DNA of 64,000 bases from Lytechinus pictus (lineage: Eukaryota). The position numbers and the translations under genes were made by a program. The DNA lies in NCBI RefSeq assembly GCF_037042905.1, contig NC_087251.1, positions 9,054,001-9,118,000 of the forward strand. The letters are read 5' to 3'. Of this stretch, positions 20,101 to 63,600 are shown piece by piece (position 1 is the stretch's first letter; every line of letters starts with the position of its first letter). The notes below the pieces were generated by a model. The model worked only from the letters and a program-made list of their open reading frames with translations, was not told the DNA's origin and searched no databases.

Positions 20101-20940
20101 TAAAGGAGTACATGCTGCCACCAGATGTGTCTTTGTGCCGGTCTCTGGATACTATCTGGGGTGGGTGGGTCAATTTGTGCCCGTTACTATTATTGCTCTT
20201 GTATTGTACATATGTTTATTATCATCATGTTTGATTCTTTTTTCTTTCTTTTTATTTTTTATTACCTTTGTATTTTTCTTGTGCCTATTATTGCCATTGT
20301 TATAACTTGTTATATTTCATCTATGCCCCCAGGAGGGACCGTCAAAGAAATAAAATCATTGTCATTGTCATTGCCGACAGAATGTCAGTCACAGTGGCAG
20401 CAGGGAAGTGAGAGGAACCTCCCACTTCTCTGGTGGCAGCATGGTCCACATTGACAGTAGGCCTACATAGCTCGAAGAGCGATATTTCAATTTAGTTGAA
20501 GTTAGTTTGTAGGTCTCGTATTCTAATATCGAATTTATAAAGCGCTAGAAAGGACTTGTTTTGAAATGCGGACACATAATCATCTTTATTTTGCAACCAT
20601 TTGACGTAGTGGAAACATGTAGTTTCATACGGAGATAACGATGTTTGACTTCTCTCTTTCTCTCAAGGATGATTTACATTAAAGATAAAGTGCAACGTAT
20701 GTGAAACTTCAGAGCCAGTTTGAGAGAGAGAAAGAGAAGTCAAAAACTAATTTGAGAATTTGGAGATTTATGCAGACGCATTGAGATGGCGAAAGGACAG
20801 TGTGTGAACTAACATACATTCCTAGTATTTGTGATACCCAACCCCTGTAACTTCATTTTAGTATCAAAGATGATAATCAGGACGTTTTTATTGCCGTTTT
20901 AGAAAAGCCGGTGGCATAAATGAATTGATTGGTGAATGAT

Positions 20941-22725
20941 TTAGTTGATTGATTGATTGATTGATTGATTTTATTCGTCAAGAATATCACAGGAGATTAC
21001 AATGAAATTGAGGAAAATACCTTGACAGGATAGCCCATGAAAGCCGAAAGGCTTATTTCCAATGGGGTCCTATAGTTAGTATAAAACATTAACATATTGT
21101 ATCAAAAAATATAAACTACGACAAGTACTGGAATATTGGGGGGAAAAAATACATACAAACATATCCATCAGTCATATAATTTGCAAACATCTGAAGCAAA
21201 CAATAATCTTCCTAATATGTGAGACAAGATTATATTTTAACATACCTTAATGTATACATTATCTACAATACTAGAAACCAACTGTACAAAATGTGTTATT
21301 TTACTGGTAATGCTGTTCTCGGGCAGCTTCCAGTTTTAGGTGATTTTTTAATGCACTCTTAAATTGACAAAATAATTTAACGGCTTTTATTTTATCAGGA
21401 AGAGCATTCCAAGATTGGATGCCATTAAAATAAAAAGTGTTTCCAATATGTCCTTCACGTTTTGGTAATACGAAATTAAAATTACTATTTCGAGTATCGT
21501 ACCTATGGATATTTGATACCCGGGTGAAATGATTTGCTATATAATGATCTAATTTATCCGAATAGAATATTTTATGCACGTGGTGTAATACTAATTGTTG
21601 TGACCTGTGATCTACATGAAGCAATCCTGCCTTTTCAAGTTCATTATATCCGACATGTGCTCTTGGTCCTAAAACATTTATATATCTCACAATTTTATTT
21701 TGAATTATTCTTAGCTTTTTCTTATCCGTAACACCCAGACTACCGTACCAAGCCGCATTAGCATAGTCGAATAAACATTGTATTAACGCAAAGCATAAAA
21801 TACGTCTAGACTTCATATTCAAACAGGTTTGATATCTATACAAAAATTTCAAGCGTGAATTAGCCTTTTTGGCGATTGAGTCTACCAAACCCATCCATGA
21901 TAGGTTACTTGTTAAATTAATTCCCAAATATCTTACTGAATCTTTTCTTTCAATTACCTGATTATTATATGAAACCTTGAAATCGTGTGTATATCTTAAC
22001 TTTCGTTTAGAACAAAATAAAATGCTTTCCGTTTTCCCAACGTGTAAACTAAGCTTGTTGTCAGACATCCATTCGATGCAATTAGCCAAATCAGCACTAA
22101 GTTTTTTATCAATTATCTTGGGATTTGTATCCGAATATAGCAAGACACTATCATCAGCATATAAAATTAATTTAGATTCGTTAATACAAGTACACATATC
22201 ATTGATGTAAGACATAAAAAGAATGGGGCCTAAAATGCTTCCTTGAGGGACACCGCATTTAATAGGCAGTGAATCAGAAAGAACCGTCTGCATGGTAACT
22301 ACCTGATGACGGTTAGATAAATATGATCTAAACCATGTCACACATGCAGAGTCTAAACCCATCACTTCTAATTTCTTTAAAAGTATGCTATGATTTACAG
22401 TATCAAAGGCTTTTTGTAAGTCTAGGAGAACCATTCCAACCATGCGCCCATGTGAAATTTCATTCCTGATAAAATCTGTTAAATGTATTAAACAAGTTTC
22501 AGTGGAATATCCGTTACGAAAGCCGGACTGAAATTTATATATTAGGTTGGTTTCTTGGAAGTATTTCTCCACTTGAGCATGAACAGATTTTTCCAAAATC
22601 TTCGACACTACACTTAATACACTTATTGGCCTATAATTACTAACGTCAGTTTTATCTTTCTTTTTATGTAGCGGGGTAACTTTTGCGAATTTCATATCAT
22701 CAGGAAAGGTAGAAGACATAAGAGA
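20941..22725 (-). mobile_element. 5'-truncated CR1/L2-group LINE with intact 472-aa reverse transcriptase ORF (21301-22719) and (TCAA)n tail
   Basis: [53 protein letters not shown] plus TCAA repeats at 20945-20975. Confidence 0.92.
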
Positions 22726-22769
22726 TAAAGTTGCTCATGATCAAATAAAAAGAAGTTGTAAAATCTATA

Positions 22770-41502: not shown

Positions 41503-41526
41503 GTCACGTGACTGAACCTCGCGAGA
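41503..41526. promoter_or_regulatory. YY1 proximal promoter motifs: palindromic E-box GTCACGTGAC and CCTCGCGAGA (BANP/CGCG-type element, 1 mismatch)
   Basis: Motif matches about 90-110 bp upstream of the first ATG, in a CpG-rich patch. Confidence 0.55.
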
Positions 41527-41613
41527 AATCGTGAGATTTCTGTCTACGTCACGACCCCCTGCGATGATGAGACGAACTTGGCTGCCAAAACTGGAAGCAG
41601 AAGAAAATCCAAC

Positions 41614-42175
41614 ATGGACGCCGAAGAAGTTGACATTGAGCTGCCCTATATTACGGCCAAAATGGCGGCTGATCCGGACATTATTAATACTGCAATTGAA
41701 TTACCTGTTCAAGAGGTGGAAATAGAGAGCATACCAATGGAAAATATTGAGGGCATAACGACTGAAAATATAGTTACAATACCAGTACACGGAATAGGAC
41801 AAGTGGAAACGGTGGAATGTGAAACTGTCGATGGAATTGAATGTCAACCCATCTCGATTCACCATTTAACAGATCGTGAAGAAATAGTTCTCCAGACTCG
41901 AGAGGAAATCGTTGGAGATGTTGATGATTTGACAGGTTCTAGTTATATAATTGATGCAGATTCTGTCCCTGTTCCAGTACCAAATTCAGACTTATCTGAC
42001 GAAACATTAGCTGGTCCAAGCAGACGGAAAAAGGGGAAGAAAAATTCGCGAACGAGAGTCTTGGCGAGTGGGGAGTTGTCTTTTGACTCAGAAAAGAACA
42101 CCAGAAAATGGGAACACAAGCAAGTTCAAATCAAAACTCTGGAAGGGGAATTTTCAGTGACGATGTGGGCTTCAG
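41614..42175 (+). CDS. YY1: YY1 exon 1 (acidic N-terminus plus REPO); alternative start ATG at 41662
   Basis: ccaacATGg context; donor gtgggt at 42176. Confidence 0.92.
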
Positions 42176-42498
42176 GTGGGTGATATTTTTCTTCAGAATA
42201 ATTTGCAAAAACGTCAGATTAAACGATCTTTGCATCGCCCTTCCCTCAACGTGCATTCCTCAGCTGCAACTGCAATGCGAATGCCGTAGTGGAATTCTCG
42301 ATCACACACACGCAAAACGAATGAGCGAACGCTTACGCAGAACTCGCACTCTATTTTCCGTTCATCAAAATATCAAAGCGTCTCCATCAACTAAAATGTC
42401 CATTTCAAAGAACATATTTGATATGAATGATCACATGAATAACCAAAGGGTCTAATCGACCCAAAATCTTGAATGTTGGATTTGTTTTGATGTGATTT

Positions 42499-46664: not shown

Positions 46665-47195
46665 GCAAGTTTGTACCCAAGCCTGCTTTTCATGGACAAG
46701 CACTGATGAAGAAACTTACAGAAAGCCTTTTTTTCCTCCCTCCCTACATGTACATGTACTTTCACAGAACTGCAGCTCATAATAAACTTGCATGTACATG
46801 TACGTGTACATACATACAAATTAATTTTGATTAAACTTTAGACTCAGCGATATTTTGCGGGCAAAATTCAACTAACATTGATTGATATACAAATACATGT
46901 AATTCACAATTTATAAATGTGTTGTGTAGGCCTAGTGTTACGTGATTCAGCACATTCAAGGATATTTGAAATTTGCGAAAGCACAAGGTGTTTTTGTTAT
47001 TGTGAATACATACATTTTTGTACATCTACCCGAATTACCCGCATTGTCAACATCACAAACTTTTTTGTATAATTAAGTTTTTATTGATAAAATAATTATA
47101 CAACAACAATCAAGAAAACAATTACATTGAATATCACACATACATGTAGCATTACAATATAAACAAAAATTGAATAAAAAAGAAAATAAAATGTA

Positions 47196-48904
47196 ACTAG
47201 AATTTTAATTCGTCATGAGGACGAATTAGGTGATCTGTCTCTGATTTCATGATCAGGAAGACAATCAGCATGCTTATTGAGATCAATATGATCATCATGA
47301 TGAGAACTGAACTTCTCTTACAAAAAGAACGTGTTGGATACTCTTGAAAAAGAGGGAAATGAAAAAGTTGTGTGAAAAAGTGTAGGTCATACACATACCG
47401 GTATTGTACAGGAACATTGTACATTAAAAGGGATTTTAATCTCTTTTATTGTCCAATGTTTTATTTAATATACATTGTAATGGTCATAAAGGACCATTTG
47501 TGAAATGTTGAAAAGAAAAAAAAAAGAAAAAAAAATTCTCCTGTTCACCCCGGCCTCCTGGGCTCGAACCCTGGACCCTGAGGACGCAAGGCTCATGCCT
47601 TACCCATTGAGCTACACACTTGCCATAGACTTACACATAAGCAAAACAAGAGGATCTCAAATCCAATTTTGCAAGTGAAATACGGGCATGATCCCGGCAT
47701 CTGATCGGAAAATGGAGACCACATTTGCGATAGCTTACAATCTCAGCTACAACATACTTCAAGCTCAGAGAAAACCGACAAAAAAAATGGAGATATGGCT
47801 CGCGAAATAGAGGAATGTAAAATCCAGTTTTGAGAAAAAGTCATTTCCAATAGAGATTGCACACAAAATGAGCGAAAATGACATACCCCTATAAATCAAC
47901 ATTTTCAGGGATAATCCGTGCCTTAAAATGTAAAAATGCCAACTCATTAGATAGAGTGAGTCCTCCGCTACAATATATAGGAAACTGAGCGAAAATTGAC
48001 CATATTTATGGAGTTAGAGTCAAATTTGCATAATTATGATGACGTCATACATGTACATGTAAGTAGCAAAATGGGAATTTTGAGTTCCGACGCCATTTTG
48101 ATGACGTCATGATAAAATTTCGGGTCAAATGTGACATGAAATCATATCTCCCATCCATACTCTATTCGAATTTGAAAAAAAATTGGGGGTCAACGGACTA
48201 CCTGGAGAGCTATAATGAGTTTTGTATAGTCATGTTTTTGCACATATATTGTCTATGGTTAGTGCGCGCGCGCGTGCGTGCTGTAAACTTTGATGGAGGC
48301 CAATTCCGATATTACTTGTCGTACATGTAGAAGGTTGATCAAGGTATCAAATTACTCAGAATTATATAATCAATGCATTGATATTTTAAAAAATGCTGAT
48401 CCTATGTTGTATAGTGCCGTTACGCGCGAGAACGCGCGCGTAACCGTGCGTTCGCGCAAATTTTTTAAATGCTTAAAATGACCTGATTCGTACTCTGGTC
48501 AAAAAGTGATTTTGAGCATTTTAAAATTTTGACGCGCGCGTACGCGCACGTCGTGACCTTTACATGACCTTTGATGACATGGACAGTTGACCCTTGACCT
48601 GAAGTTAATGTGATGTAAATATTGTTAATTTTTAAAATTGATAATGAAGATATGATTGATAATGTGATTTTACAAAATGGCGTCTAGATGACGTCATGAT
48701 GACCTTTTGACCTTGAACTTGTTTTATACACATCACATGATAAGTCATGATATCTGATGATATTCTGAAGATAATTGATGATGTAGATTTGGAGATTTTG
48801 TGCTAACAAGAAAAGGGCGGAAAATAAAGAAAAATAATAAATAAATAAACAAGAAAATTCGTACGAAATTAAGAGTTGATCTGTTGATTGACAGATCACC
48901 TAAT
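47196..48904 (-). mobile_element. Non-autonomous Helitron2/Helentron-type element in YY1 intron 1
   Basis: Minus strand: 5' TTAGGTGATCTGTC with hairpin partner; 3' GACAGATCACCTAA, then hairpin AATTCGTC-ctcat-GACGAATT, then CTAG and TT. Confidence 0.75.
47548..47619 (-). pseudogene. tRNA-derived sequence (pseudo-tRNA or SINE head)
   Basis: Minus strand GTGTGTAGCTCAATGGGTAAGGCA...CCAGGGTTCGAGCCCAGG with A and B boxes; acceptor stem does not pair. Confidence 0.6.
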
Positions 48905-49059
48905 AAAGGCACGATATGAATTTCATCACATAGAGATTAATAAAGATAAATATGAACATTTTCAGCAAATTTCAGCTCAAATCTCCTTTTGTGGAAATGA
49001 AGAGTTAGTTTACCTTGCTTTTTGGCTATCCTACATGTATATACTCTGTTTCTAGATTT

Positions 49060-49932
49060 TAAAAGCTTGGTAGGTGGGAGAGTTATTTTGGAATTGACAA
49101 ATATAAATAAAATATTTCAGTAAAAGAAAAATATAACTTATAAGTCACTACAAATCTATCGTCCTTATATCCAAACATTCTTTCAAAGGGTGTAAATTTG
49201 ATGTTATTATGCATTTTCATATTTATAGATTTTATCACTTCCAAAGAGGTTGAATGTGGGTGCATTTCATAAACAAATGTAAAAATGTTTCTTGTTTGCT
49301 TTTACAAAAATCGCAATTTGGAGAGTCCTTTCTTTTAATCTTGTATAAAAAGAAATTAAGGGCAATTGCTCTATGAAAGAATTTAAAATAAAAAGAACGA
49401 AAACGTGTATTGATCGAACATTTAAAAATTTTCAGATGAATTTCTTTCCAATTCAAAGGTACATCTTTACAGAGAGCATTCCAGTATGATAAGGAATTTT
49501 CAGGAATACAGTCCTCCAACATGGTATTATACACATATTTAGGAACTTGGATGTTTGCATAAGTTTGGATTTGGTCCTACATGCATCAAAACTATCATGC
49601 TTGTTGAAATCAGAGCTAGAAATCCAGCCTTCTGGAATATTTTTCATGAAAAAAATTATATTTCCTCCTGTGTGTAAATTAACACCATAATCGAAAACAA
49701 TGTCTTCAAATAATTTACTGCCTGGAATAGGAGGATCAAGTAAATTGTTGATATACATGTAAATCAAATCTTTATCCAGCCAGTCTTCATATAAAAAGTA
49801 TTGTTTTGATTTGGATCTAATATTCCTGTTAAACCATAAGCATTGACATGAGCCAATTTCAAAATATTTGACACCAAATTCGTCCTTGAATGTCAACATC
49901 AAAAACTTAGAAATGTGCATGTTTTTATTCAA
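49060..49932 (-). mobile_element. L1/Tx1-type LINE ORF2 C-terminal fragment
   Basis: LWFNRNI...W.DK..IY..INNLL; FRSFYFKFFHRAI...SPNCDFCK...ETFLHLFMKC (CCHC knuckle); frameshifted. Confidence 0.8.
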
Positions 49933-50492
49933 CGGGTCGGAAGGATGAATTTGTAGTGGAAACGTTTGATTTCCACCAAATTTTCGAGGGATTGCATGAA
50001 GAGATCACACCCATACCTACTTTTTGTTATGACATCACAGGCATATCTAGTACTGGTATGTGCAGCATCAATAGACTTCTTTGAGAGAACACATATTTCA
50101 GATGGTCTCTTTAATAGTATACATGCTAAAAATGATGCACAAAAAAGGGAACAACGCTGCATAAAAATGTACGGATGGGAGGTTTTGTAGAATTAAAGCA
50201 TGAACACACGATTTGTATATTGCTACATCCTGTAACCAGTTTTATCAAACCAAATATCGACCAGCAACATCCTCTATATTTGTTTGGTTTATGTTTGTTC
50301 TTCATTTTAAACTTATTGAGGACACTGAGGGATAAGCTTATATGTGTACATGTACTTCTGAGGGTGGTTTATCATTGAGGAATATAATGGAATGACTGAA
50401 CTTTGTTAAATTTCCATTTATTACATGTATGATGTACAATCCTTTAAAAAATGAGGTGAGAAGTCTAACTGAAATGAATTTGATTTTGTTGA

Positions 50493-50717
<225 letters not shown>

Positions 50718-51828
50718 TAGAATAGTCACAGTATCACTGGCCCATGAACTGTACATGTTCATCTTTATTAATTTTTATTAATTGACTAATGCTCAATAGA
50801 ATGTATCTCATCTTTGTTTCTTTTTTTTAAAAGTTGTGTTGACTTTTTAAGATGCGATTGTTGTGATTGTTCCTGATAAACTGATTGTACATGTAATGAA
50901 TGTTGACTGATGCAGTTTTATTTACAGTGTACATTGCCGTTTCTGCAGTATCAATTTTTTTCATACATGTACATCTAGGAACATGCTCAAATATAATATA
51001 CACACCTGTACATGTTTATATATATATTTTATGTTCAGTTTACCCCTTTTCTTTGAGGGAAAAGTCCACTACGTTAATGTCTGCCATTTCTACCCAACAA
51101 ATTGCCATCTTTCCCAAGTTTCAAATCTTTTCACGCTTCACTACTAGATTTAATTTGTCCCTAACTCTGAATCACTGATAAACATTTTTCTATGAACATT
51201 TTATCTTTTATGTCTATCATATCACAATCATGAAAATTATTGTTTTTCAAGTAATTATTACTTTGAAAGAATACAGGAACTTTGTCCATAAACAATCAAA
51301 AAATATTTTATTTCAATTAGTATCTAGTTTGCCAATCACCATTATATTACAGTTGCTGTTACACTACTTCAGTGTGTCTAAAAAATATTGTACAAGTGAA
51401 GCTACCGTCTTTGGCAATTATAAAATACTCTTATGATATGATGCTTACATTAACTTCAAGAGCATCGTATTAGCTTTTCACTACCATTAGTTATTTTCAA
51501 TTTGCCTTATTATTCCTTAGAATTGGATTTAAACAACAAATTGAAAAATGGCATTTGAAAGCTCAGACTGATGGTGATGTGAGCATAGAGGGCCCTTATG
51601 ACTCGTGCAACTTTATGTTTCAGACACACTGTATTACTCATGCAAGCATTAATAGCTGTTTGATTGGTGCTTTTTTTTTTCTTAATACTCTACTTAATAT
51701 TACTCTACATAGGTTGGACATGGAGTTCTATTGGTCCATGATTGAATATCATGGTGCAATTTAGTAATTGATTTTTGATGTTGCATAATTGCATTTCATT
51801 GCAACTCTTTCAGCATAAGGTGACTTAA

Positions 51829-52607
51829 CCCTAAACTTAGCCCTTAACTGGGCTATTTCGACGCCTACATGTAAGAAGACTGGGGGGGGGGGGGGGGGGG
51901 GGGGGCTGATTCAGCCCCCCCTAATGATCTCGGCCGTCGATCGCGACGAAAATTGGCACGCACGTTACCCATGGCATTATCTACAAAACTATAATATCAG
52001 ATTCTGTGAAAAATCTCATTGCTCATTAAATTATGCTAATTTATGCGTAAAATCATAAGTTTGCTCTAATTAACAAAATAATGCCCCTAAAATGCTAATT
52101 TTGGTTTCAGATACTCTTTATAGGCATCTGATCAAATTTATTTTAAAAAAATGTCAACATCATATTTATTTTTTTATGTATTTTATTGTATTCTTAATTT
52201 TCTTATGTATTTCTTTGTTTTTTGACTTTTTGTTTTTTAAAGTTTTTTCAATGGAAATTGTCAGAGACTTTATTATGACCATAAACAAGATAAAATTAAT
52301 TGATTTTAAGCGGTAAAAGGAAAAATAATGATACATTTTATGAATTTGGCTAAAAACACTATTTGCATTGGATTTGTACACAAATTCACATTTTTGAGCA
52401 ATTTTGGGTCTGCATGCACTTACGAAATGTTGCGTAATTTCGGAATCGCGTACCCGGGGGTCGCAATTTTGGTCTCAAAAGCTGCGCGAGACTTGAAAGT
52501 AAAAAGTCAGCGAGTGACGCGGTCAAAAAAATTAGCGCGGCGGATTTATCGCGAAAAATGTCAAGGGGGGGGGCTGAATCAGCCCCCCAGTCTTCTTACA
52601 TGTAGGG
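51829..52607. mobile_element. piggyBac-like MITE in YY1 intron 2
   Basis: TTAA|CCCTA...TAGGG|TTAA; subterminal inverted repeat aagaagactgggg..gctgattcagcccc. Confidence 0.8.
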
Positions 52608-52734
52608 TTAAGGTCTTACATGTTACTTGATTTTGATTTAATTTATAATACCCACATTCAAATTTAAATTTTAATAGAAAATATTTTTTTTATTTCTTTA
52701 TTCAAATTGTGTTTGTTTTGTTTTTTAATTGAAG

Positions 52735-52795
52735 GATTAAACCAAAGAAGCCAAAAGATGATGATGTACCAAGAACAATAGCTTGTCCTCACAAG
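52735..52795 (+). CDS. YY1: YY1 exon 3 (IKPKKPKDDDVPRTIACPHK)
   Basis: Not in the ORF track; gaag acceptor, gtaagt donor; matches YY1 PRTIACPHK. Confidence 0.95.
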
Positions 52796-53310
52796 GTAAG
52801 TAAGTCAGCCCCAAGTTGGCAACTTGGTATATTTTTATTTGTCTAAATACATTGTAAAATGCACTGTTGTACACATGCCATTTTCAGTAAACTTTTAGCT
52901 GTGGGGGGGGGGGGGGAGTCTTTGGGAGTGTAGATTGAATGCAATGCTTAATACATACAATGCATACAGAGACACAAGCATTTAAAGACCCCAAAAAGAG
53001 AAGTATTTCTAGAGGAAAAAAAACTACATACATGAACATTTAGTGTTTGAAAAGTGAAAAATTGGTGTGTGATAAAGGTATTGATTATTTGAATGACATT
53101 GCTGTTTTTCTAATAAATTTCCTAGTTTGTCTGTTACAATTTGAGAATAGATTTCATTACACAGTATTTGTATTTTTTAAATTGTTTATTGGGATCAATG
53201 CTTTGTGTGCAACCTCGTTTGTAGATTTGGTGAATATTCTGCTGAATGTATTTAGAGAAATTTAACAAGAAATAGGTGAACAATGAATCATTTCATTGAT
53301 TAACACATAA

Positions 53311-53763
<453 letters not shown>

Positions 53764-53970
53764 TAAAAAAAGGTTGAAAACACATGGTTTTCATGTGATT
53801 AAAGACTAACTCTATATGGTAAAATGTAAAAGGGCATAAAGTATAAAAGGCCAATGAGAGACACTGAGGCCAATCAATAGATCATCAATGGCCATGTCAT
53901 TTGTGGCTTTGGATTAATGTATAGCCCTGTAATAGATTTAGCATAAATAGTCAAAGTCACACTGGTATAA

Positions 53971-54246
<276 letters not shown>

Positions 54247-57200
54247 ATGTAGTCAAGACATCTGAGCTGTAAAAAGCTCTATGTGATGCAGTGCTCCCTA
54301 GCCTTAACCCACGTACCTAATCAAGTGATGAGGGAATTTTTAAAGCTTTATTATTACCTATAATGTATCAATGACCCAGCAAACATTGTTGGTCAGTGTA
54401 CATGTATGTATAGGTTTGGTGACTTAAATGGTCTTTACAAAGTAAAGATGTTCATGTATTTTAATACTACTCCTATAGTTTCGTTATCTGTCCCTCTCTT
54501 TCCCCCTTTCCTCTTTCTACATTGAATTTCTCTGTCTCCATTGAATATCCTATAGATGATGACAACAGTAGAGGAACGCATTTAACTGATCGTCTAATCA
54601 ATAGTTCAGTATTGCACCTCGAAGTGTTGACTGTTAAGATGTTTTCTGTCTATATCTGTCTACACTCATCAGCTTTACAACATTCACAATTTTCTATGGT
54701 GTTCTGCACATCCCTTACTTGGCTGGCAATGTACATATCTATACATATTGCGTGACCTATGGCTTATCAGTAGCTGTCTCATGTTGAAATAGTATCTCTT
54801 AGCACTCTTTCAAATGGACTTAAATTTGTAAATATACAGTTTGAATTTGGTCATGGAAAGTGAATTGTATATCTATGCTACCAGGTTCATTATTAGTATA
54901 TATTTTTTCATGAAAACATGGTTTGGGAAATACAGTTTATCTTATCATTAAGATCCAAGATGATTTCTGGGGTATTAAATAACTCCGAGTTATTGTAGTG
55001 CATAAACCAGTCAATGCTGTCAGACCTGGCCAATTGGTGCATCATTTCCATTCATTTTAGAGCTGTTGCAAAAAAATATTTATTATGCTTTAATTAAAGT
55101 GATGTTTTAGGTATGTCTTTAATTTTTTTTTTTTTTTTTGGGGGGGGGGATTGACCTTGACAAGTATACAGAGACAGAGTTGTGCATTTCACTACTTACC
55201 TGCACAGATGTACGTGCTGTTAACAGTATCAAAGTTAAAGAAAATATACAATTTTGAACTACTGTATTTGCTTAGATGATATCTTTGTAAGGAAAACCAT
55301 CCACATGTGTCAACATGTTTCTGTTATCAGTTTATTGTAATTCTACCAGTAAACTAAAGTATAGTCATATCATCCTTGTTATGGCAGGAATGTCATTAAC
55401 TATTATTTAGAAATTCCTTGATGCCTATGATTAGGCTTTCTTGAGTTTTATTGGCCTTAGTCCTTGATTAGGCAACACTGGAATCCATCCGATGTGATCG
55501 CATTCCGGTAACATTTTTTCCCTATTCCGATGTTCTAGTTAATGAACAATACCACAATCCATATCTATAAATTCAGTATAATTTCTAATGTAGTTTTTTT
55601 TTTCTCACCATTCAGTATAGATCATTGAGTTGATTGTGATGCAAGTACCAAGATTTTAAAGCGCCCTCTGTGGCCGCAAATGGTGCATGATATGGTTACC
55701 AGCTTTGTGAGGCTGCAGTTATGAGAGACACATCAGAAACAATACTGAGTGTTTGGTAGGAAAGTGAGGATATGCGACATAAATCTTGCTTTTGATTTGT
55801 TTGATAATTTTTCAGAAATAAATTTTGTTGTATAATTATGATTTAAGCATTTCATTGTCAGGAAAATTAGAATCTGTATTTTCTATTCAATTTTTTTGAC
55901 ATGATTCTGTCCTAACTTTTATCATTAAAAATATTGTATTTCATTGACATTTCAGTCAATATGTAAATGTATTTGTGCTACAGATAGGTTTTTAATTTAA
56001 CAAACTTTATTCAAATATTTTTTTACTCTTTTGATTAGTGAATACTTATATTTTTAAATGTTAACCTTCTTCGCAATCATGTGTTTTGTATTTTGATACC
56101 TTATTTGAAATGCTCTTGAATTTCTGTGTACTTTGCATGGTTTGATTTTAAAAGAATTTTCAACGATGACTTTAAAAATTGTGGAACAGCCCATGTTTCT
56201 GATATATATTATTATTCAACTTCTGCCACCCCCCCCCCCCCAAAAAAAAGAAATAGACAATAGTTGCAGAGCTCATTTTCTGTACATAGCCATTCAAGTA
56301 GAGATTAATATCTTGGATTGGTTATGAAATAAATGTACGTTGCACTTGCATTATTGGACACTTCATTGGATGTACTTGTGTTGATCAAGACTGATAATGA
56401 AATAAATAACATCTTATTTTTTGGTCGATGAGTAACATCCATGATCCCTTTTGTCCCATTGTGCAATTCTGATAAGAGGCAACTTGACTGCAACAGGGGG
56501 GGGGGGGGGGCCATTTCATAAGCGTTTTGTAAGTGACACATAACATTACACGGAAGGTGACCATCTCTTATGCTTGATGGGAAATTTCAATTTTCACTGT
56601 TTGGAGTGCACTTCCTATAACCCTAATCTAACTTTGAAAAATATTGCATTTTGTAATCAGATGCTTATTGAAAATCAGAATTTTGTTTTACATAAATTGT
56701 ATATCAACTGTAGCTGATGAAAATAATGTTTGGGAATTTGATTTAGCACCCAGAAAATGCTCACCAGTGATATGTAATATAACTTCTTAAAAAGACTTTA
56801 TGAAACATTTGTTGCAGTCGCTCAATATGCAAGATGATTTTACACAGGGTTGAATAATTACTTGTACTTCAAAAAAAGAAGATTTTAAATGTTTGTAACA
56901 ATCAAAGAACTAAAATGAATTATTTTGGGTAACGGATGTTGCTTTGGTAATTAGTGCACCTGGTATTGTAATTGAATACTGTGTTTGCATTTGGTGAGGC
57001 TCAGCTGAAAGTCTGTTTCCACCAGAGATAATATTTACTCAATGATGATGCCCCAGTTCTCATCATATTTTATTTGTGTTTCTCATGAGATGAATATACA
57101 CCTGTGATCAAAGTGCATAATATATTCTTGTCAACAAGAAAAGTCTACAATGTCTCACATTTTTGTTTTGAAGGTTTACATGTTTTCATGTCTTCAGCAT

Positions 57201-57448
57201 GCTTGTCTTGAATAGTTGAAGTAGACTTATTTTGTTGTTTCTTTTGAATCCATCACATTCACATCCATTTTCACCTACCAAAATACAATTATGTATTTGT
57301 ACATGTAGGAGGCCTAATCAATATAATGGTGTACGTGTGCCATGTAAATAGTGGTTAAATTGAGACAGAAAGCCAACCTTTTCATAACCTTAACTACATG
57401 CAGCTATTTGAGATAAAAATAAAAGATAATTCCCATATCATGTTTTAA

Positions 57449-58048
57449 AGGTCAAGTCCACACCTGAAATATTTGATTTGAATAAATAGAGAAAAATCAA
57501 ACTACCACAACCCTGAAAATTTCATCAAAATCGTATGTAAAATAAGAAAGTTTTGACATTTTAAAGTTTCACTTATTTTTCACAAAACAGTGATATGCAC
57601 AACTCAGTAACATGCAAATGGGACGGTCAGTGATGTCCGTCACTCACTATTTTTTTGTTTTTTATTGTTTGAATTATACAATATTTCATTTTTTACAGAT
57701 TTGACAATAGGGACCAACTTAACTGAATCATATAGTTTTAAGCAATGCTAGTTCCACATGTGCATGGAGGATCAAGCGTTGTTTCACTTGACAATGAGGA
57801 GTAAATTAGAATATTTCATGTACAATGTAATAGAATACAAAAGAAATAGTGAGTGGATGACGTCATCAGTCTCCTCATTTGCATACCGACCAGGATGTGC
57901 GTATAACTGTTTTGTGAAATTGAGAAAAACTTTAAATTGTCATAACTTTCTTATTTTACATCTGATCTTGATGAAGTTTTCAGTGTTTTGCTTATTAGAT
58001 TTTCCTCTTTTTATTCAAAACAACTTTTTGTTGGGGTGGACTTGTCCT
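57449..58048. mobile_element. Same TTAA MITE family, copy 3
   Basis: TTAA|AGGTCAAGTCC...GGACTTGTCCT|TTAA. Confidence 0.82.
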
Positions 58049-58634
58049 TTAACAATAATGTATTGTTTTTTATTGGTTTATTCTTGGAGAGATTATTGCA
58101 GCATAATTAGAAAGTAAAACAACAACATCAAAAGCAATATCATTGATTGGTGGCTAGGCAAACAATATCTATGTAATTTTTTTTTTATTCTCCACTCGTT
58201 TTAACCTCTAAAATTAGGTGAATTAAAGCCCATGACTTAATGATAAATACTTTGTTCTCAGAGTGATGTTCTTTTGATAAATTTTATTTCTGTTGATGTT
58301 ACAGTTTAGTTTTTAGTACATGAAAATACTGTTCAATTCAATTACCAGTGTCAAAACTGAATGTTTTGCAGGTAATACGCAATTAGGTTCTCCAATATCA
58401 AAACATTGCATTAGAAGTATGGTTGATTAGGATGATGTGGTATAGCAAAGACCTTGTCATCTTCCTTTCCTAATGATATTCATGTTCAAATGATTCTGAA
58501 AGTATACCTTGAGTGTACCATTTATAGTTTAACAACCTTAGGTTTGCTATTTTTTTTAAATGTAATCTCATTTACATGTACATGTATGCACTTCCTAAAA
58601 CTAGAACCCCATCGGTATTGTATACATTTATCTG

Positions 58635-58791
58635 GGGAGCGTTTCATCAACATTTTCGTCCGACAAGTTGTCAGGTCTGACAACTTTCCTTGATTATGAT
58701 TGGCTGAGAGGCACTGTTACCATAGTAACTGTCGGATAAAACAGTACTTGTCGGATAAAACGTCTGACAAGTCCTTTCATGAAACGCTCCC
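58635..58791. mobile_element. Harbinger-like MITE, inverted copy of 27183-27339
   Basis: Near-identical reverse complement. Confidence 0.75.
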
Positions 58792-60086
58792 CCGGTGTGA
58801 ACCAGCTTTCTGTTGACTGGAAAGTATATTGAAAATTTACCAACATGACCAAGAATATGTAATGAATATGTAATGATGAATGAAATAAATGGATGGCTCC
58901 AACAATAATGAACTATTTCAGATGATGTCTTTTGTCATCAATCGTTTGCAAAATGAATGAATAATAAGAAGAAATTAACAAATATATAAAAGTAAAAATG
59001 ATAAAAATAAGGTAATTATGAAAATACACAAATTAAAAAAAAAAGTAATGAAAATACAAATAAATGATGCCTTAATTTATTTACATAGGGACCTGATATT
59101 GCCAGCATACTGTTTTGCTAATAGGATAGTTTGATATTGAAGTGTTTTGTTTTTTATATGCTTTGATAATGAATCTCTCATCCATATCTTTCACAAAGGA
59201 AATCAATCAAATAGCAGCAGCTAGCTAGCCTAGCTTATTGAAGCACTATTTGCATTACAATCAATCCATACTGAGCTAAAAATAATTGACAGTTCAACAA
59301 ACAAATTCTGTAACATTTTTTTACTTTAGTTTGTGTAACTTGCTTTTATGTTTAGCCATTTAATGCAAGGAAACTGTGTTTGTTCTATTGTGGGATTTTG
59401 ACGAAAGGTTTATTGTAAAAATAGAAAAAAACAAAAAGTGAAGGTTTCAAGAAAAACCATCAAAGTTAAAAAAGTTAGAACTGCAATTTAAATTGTTTGA
59501 TTTGTGATGTCATATGCAAGCAGCATCCCCATAAATTGTGTAGTATGACAATAAAATGTCATTTTCTGAAAAAAAATGAAAATGTTTTTTATTGTACTGT
59601 CAGTATATCAACCGACAAATTATTTTACACCTGCTCCTGAAAGAAAAAAGAACGAGTCATGAACCATTAAAATATCAAAATTTCAGCATTTTATTCTACG
59701 GCACCGAGCGCCGGTGATGGTAGCTCGAGCTAAAGCCGGTGTAATAATAGCAAGTGCTTTGTATCTTCAGGCAAAAGCGCTCTATAAATCCAGCTTTTAA
59801 CATTATTGTATGGGACCGCTGCTCGTATAATTATAACATGAATAAAAAACTTCAAATAACTTTCATATTTGATGGAATTTCCTCAATTCTTCACCAATAT
59901 TTTTATTGGTTTGGTTTTCCCTTTACCAGGAATTCATTAATTTTCAAAACTGTCTTATAAATTCAAACACTTATCATCCAAATTTCAATTACGATGCAGT
60001 AGGCACGATTCCCATTATCAGCTTTATATAAATCAAGAATACTAGTATTCTGGATTATGAACATAATTGTATATTTTTTTCTTTAA

Positions 60087-60650
60087 AGGGGTATCCAACC
60101 CAAATAAAAACTTGTTTTCAGAGGAAAAAGAAAAATCAGACAAGTTCATAGGTGAAAGTTTGAACAATATCGGACAAACAAGAAAGTTATGAATTTTCAA
60201 AAGGTTTAAAAATTGGTAATCACTATACCCATGGAGACTACAAATTGGTCGCATATGTGATGTAAGGCAAAGGCTACTCTTCCATCTACTCCAAGACATA
60301 AAATTGTTAAAATTTCATGTTTTTTTTTCTTCAAGTTACACTTCAAATTATATTTTTCTTTCATGAGGACATAAAACAATATACTACCTGGGTTATATTT
60401 AGATGACTGCCCCAGGGGGGATGGGTACTTATGAGAAAACCACAAATCCCTAATATTTAAGAAAATGGCCTATGGGAAAGTTGTCCTTGCCCATTGTCAC
60501 AATTTACTTACCCAGTTGCCAATTTGAAATCTACAGTCTGAGGGATCTCCATTTTAAAGCAGCCATCGCTTGTCCAATTTCTTTCAAATTTTCACCATTC
60601 TGTTTTCTTTATTTTTATCCTTTCCAACACAACATTTATGACCAAGGCTG
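60087..60650. mobile_element. Truncated TTAA-type (Kolobok-like) MITE
   Basis: TTAA|AGGGGTATCCAACCC start; gaaagtttgaa...cggacaa...aagaaagttat module like the other TTAA MITEs; right TIR missing. Confidence 0.5.
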
Positions 60651-63600
60651 GTGAAGCAAGTTGATCGTTTTCTCATATGATATTGCCTTAAATACTCGAC
60701 TCAAACCAGAAAAAGGAAAGACAGAAGCACAAATTTTCATCCTGGCACTTTATATTTAATATTCAACCTTAAAAAGGTGTGAAATAGGAAGACGAGATTT
60801 GCTTTGAGCATAAAGTATTCAAACACACGCTTACACTTTAAGATCATTATTTCAGAAGTTAAAATGCTAATTTTAAGACTTAAATGCGCATTATTTCTGT
60901 AATACGTAGAATTCATTAAGCATGATGATACATGTTCTTGAACAGAGATGCCACTCTCTAATTGAAAATAAAGAAATAAAAATCCAGCAAATGTGTGCCC
61001 TAGGGAAGAATCTGTTGCTTGGAGTTTGATCCAGTGCATCCTGAATATTGTTAATTGTTCTTAGAATTACTCCCAGAAACAAAGATGTCTAGGAAATAAT
61101 ATATGAGAAAGTAATTATTTCATCCTTTCATTCTTTCTGAAGTATGTAATCACTTATCAGTCTTGACAGAAAATATCCATCCTCCAGGAATTATTATTCT
61201 GAAGAGTGGCATCTCTAGGTATACACATAAAACAACCTATGGATGACACAGTCTAATGACAGAGATGAAAACAATGAAATTGAATTTCACAGTCACTAAC
61301 TTTTTTTTTGTATAACATTTATGTTAGTTTGACTTGCCATTTAAATACAAGTCAGCCACTAATAATATATAATATTTTCTTTACAATCTATATATTTGCG
61401 ACATTAAAAAACCCAGCTAATATGACACAGTTCAAACACATACATACATAAATAAAGAATACCCACATCAATTTCTTATACTACCATACAGTAAAAAAAG
61501 TATATGGACCACTACACTTGTTAGACTAGTAGTATTCAGCATTTGAAGAATACGTATATAACGAAATAAATTTTGTGTACATGAACACTTTTGTAGATAT
61601 ATTTTTGATATATTGATGACAATAAACTTAAAGGGGATATATTGCTAGGAAAAGCCACTCCTATAGGCCACTACTGCTCTTCAATACAATGTAAGAATTA
61701 GTTCGCCATACCCTCTAAAAAAATCAATTTAATGATTTTACATTCAAACTTCCAAATTTACATTCAAACTTCCAAATTTTGTCAATTAAGAGTTGTAATG
61801 GAAAGTTAATCTAATCAAGTAACAAGTTATAACAAAATCAATAATGTTCATCTATGATCATTATATGTTACTAAGGGCCTCATGGAAGACCACTACTATT
61901 GGTGATGAGTCATTCTGTCTAAATATCAGTAATAAACAAATAAATACATAAATAAATAAAAAGTGGTAAGTGGTTATACACATATTGAATGTAAGCGGAA
62001 AATGCTTTTGAATACTACATACAGCAATTAAATCGATAAAATTTACGAACAGAGTAAATCATTAAAAATACACCCATTCCAGCAACGAATAAAGGATTAA
62101 CAAAAAAATACATAATCTTCATTAAGAGTAGACCTTTATTACTACATGTATTTCCTGTACACTTAAGTACAGCTGGTTATTTTTTTATTTTTTTTTAAAT
62201 CTGCACTGTATACTGGTATTTCAAGTTTTCTATATCCTCCACCACCTGGATTTTTTTCTTGGGATCATTTATCACTCATGCCGACAAAACTATAAAAGCT
62301 TGATTTTCATTTTTTGTGTACTTGGGTTTTCAGTCTTCAAACAGTAAAGGACTTGGTTATGACAGGGTTTTAAAAGCCTATCTTTGATTTTGGAAAACCA
62401 CCCAGAAATTGATCTCACTTTTCCAATTCAATATTAAATTATATGAATGTGTGTGCCCTAAAACAATTACAGAGTGAAGGGGTCCAAAATCAGAATGTGT
62501 TTTTATTGAAAAATGTACGGATTTTACATCAAAATTTTTCTTGAACGGGTGCCCAATCAAAATAAAATATTTAATTTTGTCTTGCTTATCAAACCCCTTC
62601 TCAAGCATGGAATGGGCATATCAAATCACTAATTTTGTATAGTAAGCGCCAAAAAGGCTAATTAAAAGATAAAACATTACAGAGAGAGGGTGCTAGATGC
62701 CAAATTCTGAATTCTATCGGCTGAAAAACAGTCATTGACCTCTAATTTTTTAAATATGAATATTGGAGTGTAACTCCCACTAGCAATTCCATAAAATAAT
62801 CAACCTTTTTGTATGTCCGACCTTCATTTTTCTCAAGTCTTACCTCACTTCATAAACTGACCAAGTCATGGTCCTTTGAGAACATTACAGACTGTCAGAA
62901 GAACACAAAATCAGATACAGAAAATTTCACGATTGAAGGTCCCACATATGGGAGGTCGAACATACTTAGTGTATTTCATGGAATTGCCCATTATACTGAC
63001 CCTCTACCAAAACTTTAGACAGGCTTTGAAGCCAAGTCAAATTAAAGAATTTGAAGAAGCTGATGTACAGGTGTACGTGGGTTCATATACCCAGCAATTC
63101 TTCTGAATTCATATCATGAATTGCTCTTACATAAATGACATGGACACCACATGTAGAGTTCTTCAAATACAAAGTAAATATTACTCATTTCCAGAAATTA
63201 AATGCGACATACATTGTAATGCTACATAGATTTTGAAACAGTGACTTGTAATTTCTGAACTGACGGTGTTCCATAACTTATATTCAAATAATAACATATT
63301 TCAGCATTCCACAAATACATCATTTGGTAGTAACTATCAATTGCATATCAGAGTATAGTAAAAATAAAAACCCTATTATTCCAGAAATTCAGACAACTGC
63401 TATTTACTGTATAAGCTGAAAGAACCAGGAAAACATAATATAGTGTAATTCAGTTTGTTTCAAGGCACATATTATGAACAAGGAATACCAGCTAGATAAA
63501 ATAAGAAAACATTAAAATTCATGGAATATATTTAGTACTAAATACAACAATCTTTGCATTTGATTTTAAGCATGAAAATAATCCAAGTTTATAGATGATT

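Follow-up and report, generated by a model that had tools for sequence, protein, structure and literature searches.

Probable transposon excision scars in and beyond the YY1 gene of Lytechinus pictus

The locus

The stretch of DNA described here, referred to throughout as the window, is 64,000 nucleotides long and comprises positions 9,054,001-9,118,000 of contig 7 (NC_087251.1) in the 812-Mb assembly of Lytechinus pictus (GCF_037042905.1). It contains the YY1 gene and, over most of that gene, a dense population of the palindromic octamer TACATGTA. An earlier note on this DNA had proposed that the octamer is the mark left behind when a transposon inserts at a TA dinucleotide and is later excised. 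The data presented below indicate that the octamer arises by insertion of six bases at a pre-existing TA, and suggest that its copies are probably scars of cut-and-paste transposition.

The assignment of the gene to YY1 is based on protein matches to its exons. The last zinc-finger exon finds as its best match the structure of the YY1 zinc-finger domain (1UBD, E = 2e-45), and exon 1 closes with a match to the YY1/Pho spacer peptide (4C5I, E = 7e-9). The coding exons are free of TACATGTA, as the earlier note had stated, and the nearest copies (50422 and 53357) lie approximately 55-70 bp upstream of exon starts. The features of the locus are collected in Table 1. The window also contains a 610-bp element at 57445-58052, which is scar-free and matches its own reverse strand at 72-75% identity (long inverted arms), with 12,457 first-look candidates genome-wide.

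Table 1. Features of the YY1 locus in window coordinates. "Scar" denotes a putative excision footprint; exons are predicted from protein matches and open frames. MITE, miniature inverted-repeat transposable element; LINE, long interspersed nuclear element; ORF, open reading frame.
Feature	Positions	Strand	Basis or remark
YY1 exon 1	41512..42183	+	open frame piece; no scars, nor in the following 4.5 kb of intron 1
Tandem double TACATGTACATGTA	46745..46758	.	unique flanks
TACATGTA scar, then decayed copy TACGTGTA	46795..46802	.	
TACATGTA scar	46894..46901	.	pattern search
TACATGTA scar, ~30 bp left of the 1.7-kb repeat copy	47141..47148	.	
1.7-kb dispersed repeat copy, host of three tested scars	47179..48907	+	
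Scar of second type (TACCGGTA), TACCGG (+6 bp) added at TA in this copy only	47396..47403	.	5/5 paralogs ACACA|TATTG
Tandem double scar, +12 bp at a single TA	48048..48061	.	paralog alignment
TACATGTA scar, +6 bp at TA	48322..48329	.	paralog alignment
TACATGTA scar	49032..49039	.	pattern search
TACATGTA scar, +6 bp at TA within dead LINE-like ORF	49754..49761	.	paralog alignment
TACATGTA scar	50347..50354	.	pattern search
TACATGTA scar, intronic, ~70 bp 5' of YY1 exon	50422..50429	.	
YY1 internal exon	50493..50720	+	open frame piece containing the exon
TACATGTA scar	50888..50895	.	pattern search
TACATGTA scar	50964..50971	.	pattern search
piggyBac-type MITE copy hosting two scars	51825..52611	+	TTAA duplication, CCCTAAA...TTAGGG ends
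TACATGTA scar, +6 bp at TA beside AGAAGACT-polyG, MITE left arm	51866..51873	.	
TACATGTA scar, +6 bp at mirror-image TA, MITE right arm	52597..52604	.	
TACATGTA scar, intronic, ~55 bp 5' of YY1 zinc-finger exon	53357..53364	.	
YY1 zinc-finger exon (approximate)	53390..53560	+	
TACATGTA scar	53690..53697	.	pattern search
YY1 last zinc-finger exon (approximate)	54030..54230	+	1UBD match
TACATGTA scar, shortly after the last YY1 coding exon	54399..54406	.	
TACATGTA scar	57300..57307	.	pattern search
Tandem double scar	58573..58586	.	pattern search
TACATGTA scar, last in the window; patch goes on to ~87.2 kb	62143..62150	.	

Abundance and distribution of the palindrome

An exact pattern search finds 26 copies of TACATGTA across the window, against 1.64 on average and at most 6 in 100 dinucleotide-preserving shuffles, none of which reached the observed count. 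Between 46745 and 62150 there are 23 copies at 20 loci, three of which are tandem doubles (46745/46751, 48048/48054 and 58573/58579), and before 46745 there are only three (902, 12236 and 17637). The earlier count of loci, doubles and preceding sites, which had been made by eye, was reproduced at every coordinate. When all 8-mers were compared inside and outside the interval, TACATGTA ranked first by excess (23 vs 3).

The excess is a property of the whole genome and extends beyond this window. Genome-wide, TACATGTA occurs 224,046 times (0.276/kb), while its reversed word occurs 85,448 times and the matched palindrome TATGCATA 29,568 times; it is therefore 7.6 times commoner than the matched control, a surplus of roughly 190,000 copies. 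Relative to the genome mean, the interval 46745-62150 is 5.4 times denser (23 copies in 15.4 kb, Poisson p = 2e-10) and the preceding 46.7 kb, with three copies, is four-fold sparser (p = 1e-3). A single dispersed repeat carrying the octamer can be excluded as the source of the sites in the window: the sequences flanking the sites are unique and mutually unrelated, and the consensus sequences of the repeats do not contain it.

With 30 kb added on either side of the window (124 kb contiguous), the dense patch was found to extend to approximately 87.2 kb in window coordinates and to contain 51 copies in 41.3 kb (1.23/kb), where the genome mean predicts 11.4 (p = 7e-18). To the left of the patch there are 13 copies in 76.7 kb, and the final 6 kb on the right have none. 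Among 31 palindromes of the forms TA-xxxx-TA and xx-CATG-xx, TACATGTA alone is enriched (51 in the patch vs 13 outside). The excess had been described as sharply bounded over the YY1 gene body. Its left edge is indeed sharp, but is reached 4.5 kb into intron 1, and the right bound at 62150 was an artefact of the end of the window. Nor is the excess confined to that gene: the patch omits the first ~5 kb of YY1, covers the remainder and continues across a convergent mitochondrial-carrier gene on the minus strand (~68.6-69.4 kb; Mito_carr, E = 1.4e-45). This SLC25-type gene stands tail to tail with YY1; SLC25A29 adjoins YY1 in vertebrates too, and the linkage may be old and conserved.

Origin of the sites

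The direction of change can be established for loci inside repeat copies, where the window copy was compared with paralogs elsewhere in the genome. At 49754, exactly 6 bp are absent from the three closest paralogs (89, 82 and 75% identical), which have ...ATA|TAAATC... at the point of the TACATG insertion in the window, and the octamer is present at this position in none of 19 aligned paralogs; the insertion keeps the frame of the dead LINE-like ORF, with a gain of two residues. In the piggyBac-type MITE (4,852 first-look candidates in the genome), site 51866 is a plain TA in 28 of 29 other copies, the remaining copy being deleted across the site, and site 52597 is a plain TA in all 29. The 1.7-kb repeat has 2,681 first-look candidates, and its paralogs are 86-94% identical. 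At 48048/48054, where the window has 12 additional bp at one TA, the sequence is GACGTCA|TAAGTAGC in all five paralogs compared, and at 48322, where it has 6 bp more, again at the TA, all five have TTGTCG|TAGAAGG. At each of the five TACATGTA loci that can be tested in this manner, one or two CATGTA units have been inserted at a plain TA, and the added bases have a TA to either side. The event that generates TACATGTA is a six-base (CATGTA) insertion at an existing TA, as the earlier note had anticipated, with one double amounting to +12.

These comparisons bear directly on the proposal that the octamer arose by point substitution, through decay of the CpG in a methylated TACGTGTA or TACACGTA, or that it is a binding motif with an ACATGT core maintained by selection. 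The patch is CpG-poor and rich in TG/CA, as decay would have it. Substitution nevertheless cannot have supplied the sites, because the CpG precursors are too few (four in the 46.7 kb outside the interval, ~0.09/kb, against 1.23/kb of TACATGTA in the patch), and every polarised locus is an insertion; CpG decay, which the earlier note had named as one challenge to its proposal, is rejected as the origin. With regard to binding, ACATGT lacking the full 8-mer is not enriched (33 vs 34.3 expected), and selection would not prefer one identical insertion to substitutions. Both forms of this explanation are considered extremely improbable.

Several observations concern the MITE copy itself. Both of its scars occupy mirror-image TAs of the two arms, each beside AGAAGACT and a long run of G or C. 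Such an arrangement is improbable by chance at the patch's rate of ~1.4% per TA, and a structural hot spot or conversion between the arms may be involved. The copy also has 8 extra bp (TTAGCCCT) at 51837-51844, close to its left end, an insertion found in none of the 29 other copies, and a run of ~30 G at 51877-51908, where the 29 other aligned copies have 9-25 G. The possibility that the copy was a 740-bp element with TACATGTA-bearing ends was considered and proved wrong: the element has the TTAA/CCC...GGG ends of a piggyBac-type MITE, and only the window copy carries the octamer.

Proposed mechanism of scar formation

Cleavage by Tc1-family transposases occurs at the 3' end of the element and 2-3 nt inside its 5' end, according to a passage of PMC2170065, and the footprints that remain after end-joining are described in part of PMC6943129 as the terminal 2-4 nt of the element between the TAs. 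By such a route, a Tc1-family element would integrate at TA and duplicate it, and a later excision would cut exactly at the 3' ends and two bases inside the 5' ends, leaving flanks of ...TACA-3' and 3'-ACAT.... End-joining that retained both 2-base overhangs would then produce TA-CA-TG-TA. Elements with different termini would be expected to leave scars of the same kind. It is considered probable, with a likelihood of about 0.78, that the copies of TACATGTA are scars of cut-and-paste transposition.

The immediate surroundings of the sites are consistent with this mechanism. Read outwards, the 218 outer half-sites of 114 scars, with doubles set aside, follow the pattern Y-R-T-(g), with A depleted beside the TA, and the preference differs from that of all TAs at positions 1 and 2 (chi-square p ~1e-6 at each). 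The pattern is close to the Tc1 target consensus CAYATATRTG given in a portion of PMC9635669, although position 1 is C or T here and T alone in the Tc1 consensus. The forms that would be expected from elements with CAC/GTG ends show no enrichment (7 vs 5.9). The scars lie in introns, untranslated region and dead repeats, and appear to be fixed, moderately old on average and selectively silent at this locus.

Tandem arrays are a regular feature of the genome-wide population. Arrays of one, two and three units number 224,046, 9,353 and 449, respectively, a near-geometric series in which a second unit is found in ~4.1% of arrays and a third in ~4.8% of those. Random re-hitting of the two TAs of a scar would give doubles in ~0.3-1.4% of cases, a range set by the genome-wide and in-patch fractions of TAs hit. 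Each TA of a scar has CATG on its inner side, however, and flank ratios indicate that this half-site is preferred ~3.8-fold, raising the expectation to ~1-5%. A scar would thus present two TAs, each with a preferred inner CATG, and be re-hit more often than an average TA, giving rise to doubles and triples. The earlier suggestion that doubles represent re-insertion into an old footprint is quantitatively adequate.

Doubles and triples could also be produced by replication slippage of a CATGTA hexamer, in the manner of a proto-microsatellite and with no transposition at all, and the slight climb with length in the share of arrays gaining a further unit is in keeping with this. Slippage requires a prior unit, whereas the single sites derive from plain TA with no CATG nearby; moreover, the arrays remain very short, and in the doubles the TA...TA phase outnumbers another phase of the same repeat 3.7-fold (9,353 vs 2,537). 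Slippage cannot have produced the single sites and is very improbable as a full account, although it may contribute to the doubles alongside re-insertion.

A second scar type and other palindromes

The 1.7-kb repeat copy provided a chance find of a second kind, a private TACCGG inserted at TA at 47396 and missing from five of five paralogs. The resulting octamer, TACCGGTA, occurs 20,388 times genome-wide, against 14,407 for its CpG-free reverse. Such a scar would be expected were the rule a general one, with TA followed by the terminal two bases of an element, the mirror of these and a further TA, and it appears to be one example of a scar of the same build from an element with other termini. 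A search for a mariner-type source with CC...GG ends gave none at E <= 1e-10 among eight scored, and the search's own controls were also silent, so that the negative carries little weight.

Two further palindromes of the TA-XY-Y'X'-TA form, TACTAGTA and TAGTACTA, are found at 60040 and 63533. They occur three times and twice, respectively, in the patch and are both absent from the 76.7 kb outside, and may be scars of other elements. The hexamer TGTACA, where it does not touch a scar, is 3.3-fold enriched in the patch (46701 to ~88 kb; 32 vs 18 outside, p = 3e-5). As TG|TA|CA it matches the flank preference of the scars, and its CpG-bearing precursors show no depletion. The copies at 47405, 47418 and 52375 are ancestral in comparison with paralogs, with no insertion, and free TGTACA is excluded as a scar for these three testable copies.

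A candidate source element

The earlier note had called for a Tc1/mariner-type family ending in CA...TG, and a Tc1-type element of this description is present in hundreds of copies, most with intact frames. A DDE_3 search of the genome gave 729 first-look candidates; 150 were scored, nearly all equally, and most had an open 364-aa frame. In one copy, HTH_Tnp_Tc3_2 (E = 8.5e-19) and DDE_3 (E = 9e-20) were both recognised. The element measures 1,896 bp, and its inverted repeats of ~195 bp are 83% identical. It starts CACTACTC... and ends ...GAGTAGTG (more fully, CACTACTCAAAAAAAGTTAAGG......CCTTAACTTTTTTTGAGTAGTG), so that its terminal bases are CA(CTACTC...) and (...GAGTAG)TG, and TA closes the unique flanks on each side in four of four copies. 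By its sequence, the candidate is a TA-duplicating Tc1-family transposon with CA...TG termini, and the bases added in the scar equal its terminal bases. A first placement of the ends at TA|CAGCTGTCC was wrong; this is an internal repeat, the copies being identical further outward, and the true ends lie beyond it.

A short-word BLAST detected no direct repeat of the terminal site inside the long inverted repeats (the inverted repeat/direct repeat, or IR/DR, layout). Elements ending in CATG...CATG, which would leave 4-nt cohesive overhangs, were absent from ~350 kb of genome DNA examined, and another Tc1 relative had no terminal repeats in the piece examined. Many of the Tc1-type transposase matches occur as head-to-head pairs on opposite strands, 1.0-1.9 kb apart, and one left end of a Tc1-type element continues directly into reverse-complemented coding sequence; rearranged inverted dimers seem to be common in the family.

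A number of points weigh against the excision reading, or against this family as the origin of the scars. Polarisation covers five of the 20 loci, the other 15 lying in unique DNA. Termini of the CA...TG type are near-universal in the superfamily, and the match of the candidate's termini to the scar is weak evidence for that family. The end pieces of four to five candidate copies are identical, giving the family a very young look, whereas the scars in the patch have undergone ~4% decay per site (an excess of 44 intact copies and of 14.5 with one mismatch). Because the copies are very young and the scars decayed, the present-day family is probably not the source of most scars here, and no copy of it was found in the 124 kb examined. 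As a source of scars in general, the Tc1-type family is a candidate and is not proven. The minor products that excision should leave behind show only slight enrichment in the patch, namely the +4 forms TACATA/TATGTA (60 vs 46.9 expected, p = 0.012) and TAC(A/T)GTA (16 vs 9.8, p = 0.014), although composition could explain both. Finally, uniform retention of both overhangs (+6) would be an unusual outcome of repair, given the products of other systems. Sleeping Beauty leaves TACAGTA or TACTGTA (+5), with one overhang's worth retained. Minos leaves a +6 footprint. In the soma of C. elegans the typical Tc1 scar, by a passage of PMC13148408, is +4 (78%), whereas the scars here are +6, with four bases added, two per end. 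For rice Mariner-like and Stowaway elements, part of PMC4423477 gives eight clean excisions of 94, most of the others having deletions or filler DNA, in contrast to the one stereotyped 8-mer found here.

Regional differences in scar density

The supply of targets does not account for the patch. With TAs weighted by the measured flank preference, 70-87 are available per kb throughout, and this flat density excludes target availability as the cause. Per 1,000 weighted TAs there are 14.3 scars in the patch (46.7-88 kb), 4.1 from -30 to 0 kb, 0.9 from 0 to 42 kb, and none in either the first 4.5 kb of YY1 intron 1 or the stretch from 88 to 94 kb. The contrast between neighbouring stretches is approximately 16-fold. 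The leading guess is that patchiness results from regional differences in landing and, above all, in excision sealed by end-joining.

It is possible, though on balance unlikely, that the patchiness is trivial, either because the scar-poor DNA is younger, made up of repeats that postdate most of the scarring, or because one resident element hopped locally many times. Young repeats do occur on the scar-poor side, including a very young LINE piece at 20936-22730 (~20.9-22.7 kb) with an open 477-aa reverse-transcriptase frame and 98-99% identity to many other copies, a 0.7-kb piece at 44.2-44.9 kb (96-99%), a 0.8-kb piece (92-98%) and abundant reverse-transcriptase debris. Dating, however, took in only the strongest repeat per segment, and most of the 46 kb lies outside these. 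Neither YY1 exon 1 nor the DNA around it is young, yet both are without scars, and a repeat at 45.3-46.5 kb shows the same degree of divergence (88-94%) as those that carry scars, although it should hold only ~1.4 of them. Local hopping is at odds with the finding of no Tc1-type copies in 124 kb. On contig 1 the overdispersion of TACATGTA is moderate (a variance/mean ratio of 1.6 on the 10-kb scale and of 2.2 on the 20-kb scale), as an ordinary patchiness would have it, and the excess of pairs 170-200 bp apart (6,149 vs ~1,917 expected, 3.2-fold) is uninformative alone, as the reversed control word clusters equally at this spacing (1,021 vs ~279, 3.7-fold). Against a trivial origin stand the size of the excess in the patch over the genome mean and the presence of the second scar type in the same patch.

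The earlier note had further suggested that density maps the chromatin state of the germline. In this form the idea would be that elements in germline-methylated, transcribed gene bodies are excised far more frequently and that the patch records that state. The observed/expected ratio of CpG (CpG o/e), an indirect proxy for methylation, is 0.3-0.5 from ~50 to 89 kb; elsewhere, including 90-92 kb, it is ~0.7-1.0. A gene body that is CpG-depleted while its 5' end is spared is the picture expected of gene-body methylation. Across the 124 kb, scars follow CpG depletion (rho -0.41, p = 9e-4; CpG o/e 0.48 in the patch vs 0.77). The patch, in addition to leaving out the 5' end of YY1 and covering two convergent genes where targets are evenly available, stops ~3 kb short of the GC-rich stretch at 90-92 kb (CpG o/e ~1). 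TACCGGTA occurs within the same patch, and its tendency on contig 1 to lie near TACATGTA doubles (16 vs 9.9 by chance, p = 0.03; control word 14 vs 13.8) hints that domains, rather than single elements, set the rate of scarring. A passage of PMC3680223 reports that CpG methylation of the donor raises excision of Tc1-family elements of the IR/DR type more than 20-fold, and the candidate has long inverted repeats, but no second binding-site repeat, the defining feature of IR/DR elements, was found in it. Other results also run counter to a chromatin record. In 58 random 3-kb loci, CpG o/e had no predictive value for scar density (rho -0.005 and -0.05), and the 14 most CpG-poor of these loci carried 0.20 scars/kb. 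The local correlation depends on essentially one domain with two edges, and no promoter can be assigned to the right edge, as the 5' exon of the carrier gene was not found by motif search or by Pfam (0/96 ORFs). A link between the patch and chromatin state is accordingly held only tentatively, and is doubtful on present evidence.

A broader version of this idea treats excision scars as a fossil record of the germline. Tc1-family elements would be expelled faster from gene bodies that are methylated and transcribed, and the breaks sealed by overhang-preserving end-joining, so that scar density per available TA would give a gene-by-gene, long-term average of chromatin state, self-reinforcing in that scars are better targets. 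This extension is speculative and rather improbable. The footprint reading is supported and the source family is a candidate, whereas the bounds of the patch and the chromatin inference are not established.

Comparison with known systems

Among the matches listed in a full-text search of the literature for TACATGTA, none concerned scars, and a search combining the octamer with footprint or transposition gave nothing whose title or abstract was relevant. Among studies of excision footprints across genomes or in introns, the nearest is that of rice (PMC4423477), in part of which excisions are likewise inferred by comparison between related sequences and, it is argued, make a real contribution to the way genomes change. 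Unlike the excisions in that account, the scars described here consist of one 8-mer at 224,046 copies with a strongly patchy distribution.

Methylation-enhanced excision, reported for Sleeping Beauty, Frog Prince and Minos in a portion of PMC3680223, would pile up scars where donor DNA was CpG-methylated, and the candidate element shares long inverted repeats with these transposons. The effect was seen there with plasmid donors in cultured cells, whereas methylation of the present patch is putative, read from the CpG o/e proxy.

The conversion of TA to TACATGTA constitutes a sizeable, stereotyped class of insertion in an animal genome, and implies that excision, besides insertion, shapes k-mer content and introns. 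For annotators and motif hunters, the most over-represented palindrome here would be a repair scar and no binding site. The uniform +6 product is informative on the germline joining of non-complementary 3' overhangs in this organism. The contrast in density per available target is unexplained by sequence, and if it does reflect chromatin, germline history could be read from any assembly without experiments.

The canonical footprints of Tc1/mariner elements, as described in passages of PMC6943129 and PMC2170065, are likewise insertions at TA with TA on both sides and terminal bases between, produced by staggered cuts and end-joining. Those footprints are known from assays, whereas the scars here form a nearly uniform, fixed genomic record. 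The type of event is thus a textbook one, and what sets this genome apart is the uniform +6 product, its abundance, its self-reinforcing arrays and the 16-fold regional contrast.

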